Source: an uncultured Candidatus Rokubacteria bacterium
GTDB taxonomy: Bacteria > Methylomirabilota > Methylomirabilia > Rokubacteriales > DASRDR01
NCBI GenBank assembly: GCA_963805625.1
Contig: CAWDVE010000013.1
Coordinates: forward strand, 64,001 to 128,000
Direction of reading: 5' to 3'
DNA length: 64,000 nt
This document shows, piece after piece, positions 12,843-15,561 of the stretch. Each line of letters starts with the position of its first letter. Within the stretch, counting starts at the first letter, position 1. The notes under the pieces were generated by a model, which was given only the letters and a program-made list of their open reading frames with translations, had not been told where the DNA came from and made no database searches. A program made the translations under genes and the position numbers.

Positions 12843-12901
12843 ACTCGATCTCACCCGGCTTGACCCGATTCCGCAGCGAAACGCGGTGTATCCTGCTTCA
12901 C

Positions 12902-14041
12902 GTGATCGACGCCGATGCCTTCCTCGAGCCGGCGCGCGCCCGGGGCTTCGGTTTCTACGCGGGCGTCCCTTGCTCGTTCCTGACCCCGGTCATCAACCGG
13001 GTCATCAGCGACCCCACGCTCGAGTACGTGGGCGCGACGAGCGAGGGCGAGGCGGTCGCCATCGCGGCGGGCGCCTGGCTGGCCGGCAGGAAGACCGTCG
13101 TGATGTGCCAGAACTCGGGCCTGGGGAATGCAGTCAACCCGCTCACCTCGCTCAGCTTCCCGTTCCGCATCCCGACCCTGCTGGTGGTCACGTGGCGGGG
13201 CCAGCCGGGAATCCACGACGAGCCGCAGCACGAGCTGATGGGCCAGATCACTGGCAGCCTGCTGGACGCCATGCGGATCCCCCGTCGCCCGTTCCCGGCA
13301 GCGCCCGAGGACGTGGAGCCGGCCCTCGCACAGGCCGAGGCGGCGATGGACCGGTCGGAGCTGCCGTTCGGGCTCGTGATGGCGAAGGACACCGTCCGCG
13401 ACGGCGGCCTCGACGAGAAGCCGCCCGACCCCAGGCTCCCCGGCGCCCGCCGGGATCTCCGGGAGCACGGCCCCCGCCCTGCCCGGGTCGAGATGCTGCA
13501 GCGCTTTCTCGCCGTCGTCGCCGACACGGCCGCCGTCATCGCCACCACCGGGAAGTGCGGCCGTGAGCTCTTCACCCTGGCCGACCGGCCGCAGCACCTC
13601 TACCAGGTCGGCTCGATGGGTGGCGCCAGCGCAATGGGTCTCGGCGTCGCCCTCCACACGCCGCGCCCGGTGGTCGTCCTCGACGGTGACGGTGCCGCGC
13701 TCATGAAACTCGGCAACCTCGCCACCATCGGAAGCCGCGCTCCGGCCAACCTCGTCCACGTCGTGCTCGACAACGGTGTCCACGCCTCGACGGGCGGCCA
13801 GGCCACGGTGTCGGCCAACGTGGACTTCGCGGCCGTCGCCCTCGCGTGTGGCTACGCGAGCGGCGCGAGCTGTGACAGCTTGCGCGGGTTCGAGCAGACC
13901 CTGGGAGCGAGCCGCGACGCCCCGGGGCCCCACCTGATTCACGCGCGGATCGCGCCCGGATCTCTCGCGAAGCTGGGGCGCCCGACGATCACGCCTCCGG
14001 AGGTCGCGCGGCGGTTCCGTTCATTCCTCGCGGAGCCCTGA
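12902..14041 (+). CDS. aepY: phosphonopyruvate decarboxylase (ThDP-dependent)
   Basis: GVPCSFL, EGEAVAIAAG, QNSGLGNAVNPLTSL, DEPQHELMG, TTGKCGRELF, GSMG and DGDGAALM motifs; GTG start at 12902. Confidence 0.88.
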   Translation: MIDADAFLEPARARGFGFYAGVPCSFLTPVINRVISDPTLEYVGATSEGEAVAIAAGAWLAGRKTVVMCQNSGLGNAVNPLTSLSFPFRIPTLLVVTWRGQPGIHDEPQHELMGQITGSLLDAMRIPRRPFPAAPEDVEPALAQAEAAMDRSELPFGLVMAKDTVRDGGLDEKPPDPRLPGARRDLREHGPRPARVEMLQRFLAVVADTAAVIATTGKCGRELFTLADRPQHLYQVGSMGGASAMGLGVALHTPRPVVVLDGDGAALMKLGNLATIGSRAPANLVHVVLDNGVHASTGGQATVSANVDFAAVALACGYASGASCDSLRGFEQTLGASRDAPGPHLIHARIAPGSLAKLGRPTITPPEVARRFRSFLAEP

Positions 14042-14061: not shown

Positions 14062-14502
14062 ATGGAGGCGTGGGAGGCGAACCTGGTGATGAGTGCCGCG
14101 GAGATCGCGCGGATTCTCGCGGAGTGCCGGCGCATTGCGGTGCTCGGGATCAAGCCCGAGTCGCGCGCGGGCGCGCCCGCCTTCTACGTGCCCGAGTACA
14201 TGCTCCGCCAGGGCTACGACGTCGTTCCCGTCCCCGTGTACTACCCGGAGATCGTCGAGATCCTGGGGCTGCGCGTCCATCGGTCCCTCCGGGACGTGCC
14301 GGGGCCGATCGACATGGTGAACGTCTTCCGCCGCCCCCGGGACATCCCGCCCCACGTCGCGGACATCCTGGCGGTGAAGCCGCGCGTCGCGTGGTTTCAG
14401 CTCGGGATCACGCACGACGAGGCGGCCGAGACCCTGGCGCGGGCGGGAATCCGGGTCGTCCAGAACCGGTGCCTCCTGGTGGAGCACCGGCGGCTCGCGT
14501 GA
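14062..14502 (+). CDS. CoA-binding domain protein (YccU-like)
   Basis: IAVLG, YDVVPV, IDMVNVFR, WFQLGI and VVQNRC motifs. Confidence 0.9.
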   Translation: MEAWEANLVMSAAEIARILAECRRIAVLGIKPESRAGAPAFYVPEYMLRQGYDVVPVPVYYPEIVEILGLRVHRSLRDVPGPIDMVNVFRRPRDIPPHVADILAVKPRVAWFQLGITHDEAAETLARAGIRVVQNRCLLVEHRRLA

Positions 14503-14507
14503 AGGTG

Positions 14508-15041
14508 ATGGCGGGTCTCGCGGCGCGGCTCGACCCCATCGTCCTACCGGACGCAGACGGCCGGCCGGTGAGGCTAGGCTCTCTCTGGGCTGACGCGCCC
14601 GCGGCCCTCGTCTTCCTCCGCCACTACGGCTGAGTGTTCTGCCGGGAGCACGTCGCGCAGTTGCGCGACCACGAGGCCGAGTTCCGAGCGCGTGGCGCGC
14701 GCGTGGCCGCGGTCGGCCTCGGGGATCTCGCCTACGCCCGGGCGTTCCGCGACGAGTCCGGAATCGCTTTCCCGCTCCTGATCGACGCGGAGCGGGAAGC
14801 CTACCGCGCGGCGGACCTCAGGTCCGCCACGCTTCGCCACCTGCTCCGCCGGGACAACTTCGCCGCCCGTCGCCGTGCCCGGGCGGCCGGCCACCGGCAA
14901 GGGCGGACCGGCCAGAACGTGTTCCAGCTCGGCGGGAGCTTCGTCTTCGGCCCGGGCAACGTCGACCGCTACGCGCACGTGAGCGAGACCTTCGGCGACA
15001 CCGCCCCGGTCTCCCTGCTGCTGGCCGCGCTCGACCGCTGA
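14508..15041 (+). CDS. AhpC/TSA (peroxiredoxin-like, PRXL2/SelU-type) protein with in-frame TGA read as selenocysteine (UxxC)
   Basis: One frame reads MAGLAARLDPIVLPDADGRPVRLGSLWADAPAALVFLRHYG-TGA(14631)-VFCREH...QLGGSFVFGPG. The TGA falls where the family has the first Cys of LRHxGCxFCRE. Confidence 0.85.
14652..14669 (+). promoter_or_regulatory. candidate bacterial SECIS apical hairpin
   Basis: GTCGCGC-AGTT-GCGCGAC; loop begins 26 nt after the TGA, with G at loop position 2. Confidence 0.65.
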
Positions 15042-15114: not shown

Positions 15115-15561
15115 TCAGCCGGACTGGTCGAGAAATCGCGCGCGGTGCCGCGGCTCTGGGAGCGGGCAGCTGTCGTAGCGACCGAACAGGCGGTAGCGGG
15201 TGCGGGCCACGAGGTCATACCCCAGATCGCGCACCCATCTCGGCACGACGCGCAGCGCCCCAGCAGCCCGCCACGGCCCCCCCAGCTCGCGCAGGATCCA
15301 CAGCGCAGCGTCGGACTTCTGGAGCAGGCGCTCCTCTGGCCGGCCGTGGGCGATGACGAGATAGAGGGTGTCGAGGTCCCGGGGATCCCGACCGTGTCGG
15401 GCCAGGATCTCACTCGCGAAGGCGCTCTGGAGTGCCGCGAAACGAAACCGTCCAGGGCGATCCCGCGCCAGCACGAACCGGTTGAGACGGTTACAGAGGC
15501 CGCAGACGCCGTCGTAGAGGATGATCGGCCCGTCCGCCGTGGCGCCGGGCGGCTCACTCAC
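15115..15561 (-). CDS. DCC1-like thiol-disulfide oxidoreductase (DUF393)
   Basis: ILYDGVCGLC, RFAALQS and RDLGYDLVARTRYRLFG motifs. Confidence 0.9.
   Translation of the reverse strand: MSEPPGATADGPIILYDGVCGLCNRLNRFVLARDRPGRFRFAALQSAFASEILARHGRDPRDLDTLYLVIAHGRPEERLLQKSDAALWILRELGGPWRAAGALRVVPRWVRDLGYDLVARTRYRLFGRYDSCPLPEPRHRARFLDQSG

Follow-up and report, generated by a model that had tools for sequence, protein, structure and literature searches.

The gene at 14508..15041 of the window (the whole stretch of DNA that was analysed, 64,000 nucleotides long) is intact, and its internal UGA codon is very probably read as selenocysteine (Sec), so that it would encode a 177-aa UxxC enzyme with thioredoxin fold, likely reducing peroxides or disulfides. 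Recoding of this UGA as Sec had been proposed in a preliminary description of the DNA and is supported by TGA/Cys pairing among relatives, by conservation of the hairpin nucleotides in TGA carriers and by the presence of selA, selB, selC and selD in the genome.

The reading frame and its TGA/Cys column

The frame runs from ATG 14508 to TGA 15039-15041, unbroken except for a single internal TGA at 14631-14633, around which the read-through is LRHYG-U42-VFC45-REH (Table 1). The list of open reading frames cuts the gene in two, the first part ending at 14633 and the second, of 135 aa, starting at 14634. The preliminary description had taken these for one gene split at TGA 14631, with a product of roughly 177 aa, and both points were borne out by the single frame with one internal stop and by the computed length. 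An alternative in-frame start, GTG 14499, overlaps the stop of the upstream gene. Confirmation of the TGA outside the assembly, which had been called for, came from an independent public contig (run X2) that covers 14520-15003 and differs at five letters, none of them at 14631-14633. In the nearest strain (run X1) the segment 14592-15155, TGA included, is uncovered, while the RNA runs X18 and X20 contained short pieces only, and among their contigs none from this strain spans the gene.

Table 1. Features of the window at and around the gene with the internal TGA.
Feature	Coordinates	Strand	Remarks
Phosphonopyruvate decarboxylase gene, two genes upstream	12860-14041	+	TIGR03297, 424 bits (cut-off 312)
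CoA-binding-domain gene	14062..14502	+	PF13380, E 1e-33; ends 5 nt upstream of the ATG
Predicted Sec read-through CDS, SelL-related / PRXL2-like, thioredoxin fold	14508..15041	+	177 aa; NF040769 124.2 bits; PF13911 E 1.4e-15; pLDDT 95
In-frame TGA, codon 42, predicted selenocysteine	14631..14633	+	column is invariant Cys in 33 homologs
UxxC motif U42-V-F-C45	14631..14642	+	located where helix 43-54 starts, behind strand 32-36; aligned with the human PRXL2B CVVC
Second hairpin, adjoining the UGA on its 3' side	14634..14651	+	absent from the preliminary description; 3 of 7 pairs disrupted in most rows (21-25 of 33)
Predicted bacterial SECIS hairpin	14652..14669	+	7-bp stem; AGUU loop 14659-14662; 25 nt behind the UGA
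DCC1-like thiol-disulfide oxidoreductase gene, convergent	15115..15561	-	PF04134, E 1.8e-28

Alignment of homologs, suggested earlier as a check for TGA/Cys pairing, gave TGA in 29 and TGC or TGT in 16 of 45 loci from species genomes, these orthologs being kin and the counts not independent. Above 60% identity the codon was TGA in all 28 loci, whose records carry the labels Rokubacteria/Methylomirabilota, Acidobacteriota, Xenobia and Acidimicrobiia, and the sequence is conserved on both sides of the TGA in other organisms. Ca. Rokubacteria or Methylomirabilota is the label of the closest orthologs, which are 77-94% identical and share the neighbouring genes, so that the window likely stems from this lineage; of 251 genomes of its own phylum, 44 contain a homolog with an E-value no higher than 1e-18.

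Mis-annotation by standard gene callers, as had been anticipated, was evident from the best 120 protein matches: 93 are short forms, at least 89 of which begin directly behind the TGA. The 27 full-length proteins among these matches have C (21), W (5) or R (1) at the column. The W-bearing homologs (protein records P0008, P0011, P0017, P0026 and P0030) likely reflect a TGA translated under the wrong code by the gene caller. The phylogenetic tree was a quick version with 26 of 57 inner branches open, and L080 stands on a long branch in it due to a frameshift. Of 15 protein-only ‘Cys’ rows, 14 are known from protein records alone and could hide Sec, and therefore no count of Sec gains and losses was drawn.

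The hairpin behind the UGA

A perfect 7-bp hairpin with its loop 26 nt past the TGA had been reported and was recovered, the first loop base being the 26th after the TGA and the folding energy -12.1 kcal/mol. The bacterial SECIS consensus comprises a loop of 3-9 nt, a stem of 4-16 bp, a spacing of 16-37 nt and an energy of at most -7.5 kcal/mol, with G within the first two loop positions (PMC13188914); our own implementation of it, not bSECISearch, found here a 4-nt loop with G second, 7 bp, 25 nt and the above energy. The z-scores of the hairpin were -2.9 (42 nt), -2.2 (31 nt), -1.6 (50 nt), -1.1 (60 nt) and -1.3 (80 nt). A perfect 7-bp stem with an early loop G follows 1.5% of the 152,545 TGA triplets of the genome; among 400 random TGAs, 50% satisfy the loose bacterial SECIS rule and 12% reach -12.1 kcal/mol. 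Taken alone, the hairpin is modestly beyond chance and weak evidence, and such high chance rates led us to discard its strength as proof of a SECIS. The second hairpin at 14634-14651 was also dismissed as a SECIS, being unconserved and having its loop too close to the UGA (7 nt).

The codons that form the hairpin are more telling. From 54 distinct rows, those with TGA and an identity of 60% or more were picked for comparison, 34 distinct orthologs in all, and every one of them kept the hairpin core: codons +8 to +11 are GCG (34/34), CAG (33/33 rows with Gln), TTG (33/34) and CGC (34/34), whereas codons of nearby, equally conserved residues (Leu -5, Arg -4, Gly -1) vary freely, with the top codon at 53-68%. 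TTG is rare: of the 192 other Leu codons in the stretch, 16 are TTG, and in the genome as a whole it accounts for 3.5% of Leu codons; the single exception to it, L018, retains the stem and G at loop position 2. Only 4 of 19 Cys rows have TTG at the hairpin position. Three of the Cys orthologs are close and have an identical peptide; in two of them (L101, L102) the stem is broken, and the third (L103) retains it with one mismatch. L103 also retains the rare TTG codon and seems to have reverted recently from Sec to Cys. To judge from codon choice, the hairpin is under selection in TGA carriers and relaxed in the Cys versions. The inner four stem pairs are invariant in 33 of 33 distinct rows; a single cell changed on both sides, and shuffle tests of covariation did not go beyond chance, the core being invariant. 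Since these four pairs never vary, covariation cannot confirm the structure, and the stem rests on conservation.

A distant clade (33-44% identity; L030, L031, L161-L170, L177-L183) has a different SECIS-like hairpin, with the loop 16 nt behind the UGA, which needs the Ala codon GCT, a rare one in the source genome (5.7% of Ala codons). GCT was present in 17 of 17 TGA carriers versus 1 of 9 Cys carriers; the TGA row L182 belongs to another subfamily with the hairpin at 25 nt and lies outside the 17. Within genus g16, in which both alleles occur, the corresponding figures were 10/10 and 1/9. The Cys carriers of this clade have a second change in common and may represent one event.

Selenocysteine machinery and alternative readings

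The preliminary description had implied selABCD elsewhere in the genome. This held for selA (576 bits), for selC and for selD, which bears an in-frame TGA of its own, while selB is present in frameshifted form in this assembly. The tRNA-Sec (76.9 bits, anticodon TCA) has an 8-bp acceptor stem, a 5-bp T stem and a G discriminator, which are canonical features of such tRNAs. The selB gene lies behind selA and is split by the loss of one base between two homopolymer runs (L004:1485, G000:C21). Because the missing base is present in contigs of four out of four public runs, one of which shows no other difference along 416 bases, and five out of five congeners have an unbroken selB, an assembly error appears much the likelier cause of the break, and the broken selB was rejected as a refutation of Sec. 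The assembly probably holds more one-base errors; L110 also appears to lose frame. Furthermore, selA was found in all five non-Rokubacteria TGA carriers tested. Among Cys carriers it was found in 4 of 5 from genus g16 and in 2 of 5 distant ones; with Cys forms in selA-bearing genomes, Sec is therefore dispensable in this gene family.

Counting selD and the gene described here, the genome looks to encode at least 33 Sec-coded genes, a lower bound drawn from a coding-score and motif scan with 40 hand-picked candidates in an assembly with 6% contamination (loci L104-L139). A fitting family match across the TGA was obtained for 31 of the 40. The families include Prx/TlpA-like proteins (about 15), UGSC (four), AhpD-like proteins, rhodanese, GrdA and GrdB (glycine-reductase-type A and B), FwdB, MerB-like and a CUAEP radical SAM protein; we take their TGAs to be placed at the redox Cys of the family, judging from motifs and partly from general knowledge. 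Discarded were L114, L120, L135, L138 and L140-L143, with no family match across the TGA, and L129, with a match in a glycoside hydrolase and not at a redox Cys column. A simple-hairpin rule at -7.4 or better was passed by 31 of 34 genes (28 at -7.5) versus 7.3% of 3000 random TGAs; for eight of the 34 a hairpin had already been a condition of selection, and of the 25 chosen regardless of it the rule was passed by 23. In 5 of 34 genes, versus 1 of 3000 controls, the loop of the best hairpin starts with AGTT.

Outside the window, on the minus strand, lies a gene for a group-1-like [NiFe] hydrogenase large subunit (G000:C13:445637-446326, L153 / L130; best models Hyd-1 and Hyd-2 large subunit), in whose N-terminal nickel motif, RI-U-GV-U, TGA stands at both Cys positions. 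The double TGA is common to five genomes, the source and G192, G190, G145 and G070, out of 7 of 251 genomes matched; the latter four have whole genes with a Cys C-terminal motif, G019 has a single TGA (CxxU) and G071 none (rows compared: L152, L154-L157). The source copy loses frame about 280 codons on, and its C-terminal motif was not found in the assembly. As far as the account in PMC13582414 goes, N-terminal UXXU was reported from no group other than Group 4, two Group 1 sequences having N-terminal CXXU, and our literature search on this point found nothing beyond that paper. The group-1-like double-TGA form is possibly an unreported variant, more unusual than the 14508-15041 gene.

Four other readings of the internal TGA were weighed against Sec insertion, and together they leave slight room for doubt. 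A nonsense mutation or sequencing error, with the gene dead or in truth Cys-bearing, would take a single base change from TGC in an assembly that does err, as the one-base loss in selB demonstrates; a TGA at this codon in every one of the 28 genome loci, from several phyla, with more than 60% identity, its presence in the independent contig and the conservation of both gene halves make this highly improbable. Reassignment of UGA to Trp or Gly throughout the genome, to which the five full-length database homologs with W at the column might point, has a negligible chance, given that TGA terminates 1873 of 2835 long ORFs, that homologs have Cys at the column and that the only TCA tRNA is of the Sec type.

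The gene might also be expressed as two products, of which the 135-aa one would start anew at GTG 14634 and have only Cys45. Databases call the gene in this way, and early termination is expected under selenium shortage. The predicted fold, however, requires strands 12-15, 20-22 and 32-36 from the first piece, and the constrained hairpin codons would be left unexplained, so that we regard this as very unlikely. Marginally greater, and still small, is the chance that UGA is recoded as cysteine under the same hairpin by a SelC*/tRNA-ReC-type system: such tRNAs are described in PMC13582414 from genomes with UXXU enzymes, and the source genome has a UxxU hydrogenase-type gene. Against it stand one cysS over the cut-off and a single TCA-anticodon tRNA, of Sec type, among the 63 found by ARAGORN, a tool that could miss an odd tRNA.

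Protein family, proposed chemistry and significance

The read-through matched PF13911 (AhpC-TSA_2) and passed, by a margin of 4 bits only, the cut-off of 120 for NF040769 (SelL-related redox protein, within PF13911) over residues 14-174. Aligned with 33 Cys-written homologs, R38, H39, G41, C42, F44, C45 and R46 are invariant; the core at residues 38-46 thus agrees with the family motif LRHxGCxFCRE given in the preliminary description. The structure was predicted with a pTM of 0.91, and human PRXL2B is the nearest solved structure by both sequence (E 1e-19) and fold (TM 0.82). The match to PF13911, the CxxC-type motif at the helix start and PRXL2B as closest fold assign the protein to the PRXL2/SELENOU-like fold family. 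The peroxiredoxin motif PxxxT/SxxC(U) (PMC13188914) is absent from the read-through, in which Val35 and His39 occupy those places. The original label, peroxiredoxin-like AhpC/TSA, therefore stands in the sense of Prx-like (PRXL2/SelU/SelL-related), but does not extend to a peroxiredoxin proper. Peroxiredoxins proper (AhpC, BCP/PrxQ, Sec-Prx) belong to the same fold superfamily (PF00578 E 4.5e-13, TM about 0.7), and the PrxQ model scored 17 bits versus a cut-off of 260.

Among known systems, the motif and fold class are shared with the bacterial Prx-like thiol:disulfide oxidoreductase selenoproteins (UxxC, UxxU; GOS ‘Prx-like’), whose UxxC families have been reported since 2008 (PMC2398784) and whose UxxC/UxxU forms appear in PMC13188914 as unverified bacterial selenoprotein families ‘predicted with high confidence’. 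That paper does not mention NF040769 in its main text. Vertebrate SELENOL, treated together with SELENOU in 10.1101/2025.05.29.656587, has a two-Sec centre, unlike the UxxC of the present protein; a second Sec of the SELENOL type was not found, codon 45 being TGC in 34 of 34 TGA orthologs. Sec forms of vertebrate PRXL2/SELENOU are reported in the SELENOU1 branch only. In human PRXL2B (prostamide/prostaglandin F synthase; PDB 9US9, 9USA), the CXXC, which has an Arg next to it, serves to reduce an endoperoxide (PMC12938796). Its LRxxG-CxxC-R motif aligns at about 24% identity, and Arg38 here corresponds to Arg40, a residue that gives the PRXL2B site its shape (PMC12938796); PRXL2B has Cys where Sec is predicted here, and in place of its second Arg the present protein has His. 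There is no reason to expect prostaglandin substrates for the 14508-15041 protein.

From the known bacterial pathway and the fold we infer how Sec would be inserted and used. SelD would make selenophosphate, SelA would convert Ser-tRNA-Sec, and SelB would bind the AGUU-loop hairpin 25 nt downstream and deliver Sec at the UGA. The Sec42 selenolate, by analogy of fold, would act as nucleophile on the substrate and Cys45 would resolve it to a selenenylsulfide, after which a cellular reductant would reset the enzyme. As a first guess the substrate may be an organic peroxide, given the resemblance to PRXL2B and the Arg38 that is conserved next to the motif. The adjacent CoA-binding gene is likely co-transcribed with the Sec gene, and the DCC1-like neighbour is conceivable as reductant of the Sec protein. 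The two neighbours occur together in 9 of 45 related loci, all of one lineage, which is synteny and not a conserved pathway, and the neighbourhood was consequently set aside as a clue to function. The phosphonopyruvate decarboxylase gene hints at phosphonate synthesis.

Our search for papers on selenocysteine in Rokubacteria found none on this topic, and supplements may name the family or lineage; a Methylomirabilota genome with 63 selenoprotein genes is mentioned in PMC13188914. With a curated family model at hand and large Methylomirabilota selenoproteomes reported, the gene is of a kind already known and unsurprising to a specialist. Its description corrects an annotation error carried by the short forms among the best database matches, and supplies a further, well-supported example of a selenoprotein class listed as predicted and bench-unverified in a 2026 review table (PMC13188914). 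A wider and rather doubtful proposal is that the protein is a Sec counterpart of PRXL2/SelU reducing organic peroxides or endoperoxides in a soil and sediment lineage with much of its redox chemistry dependent on selenium, and that two SECIS types (16 and 25 nt) evolved and were lost on return to Cys. With its paired Sec and Cys alleles, a single genus offers a ready test of the benefit of Sec, and of the upkeep and loss of a SECIS inside a coding sequence.
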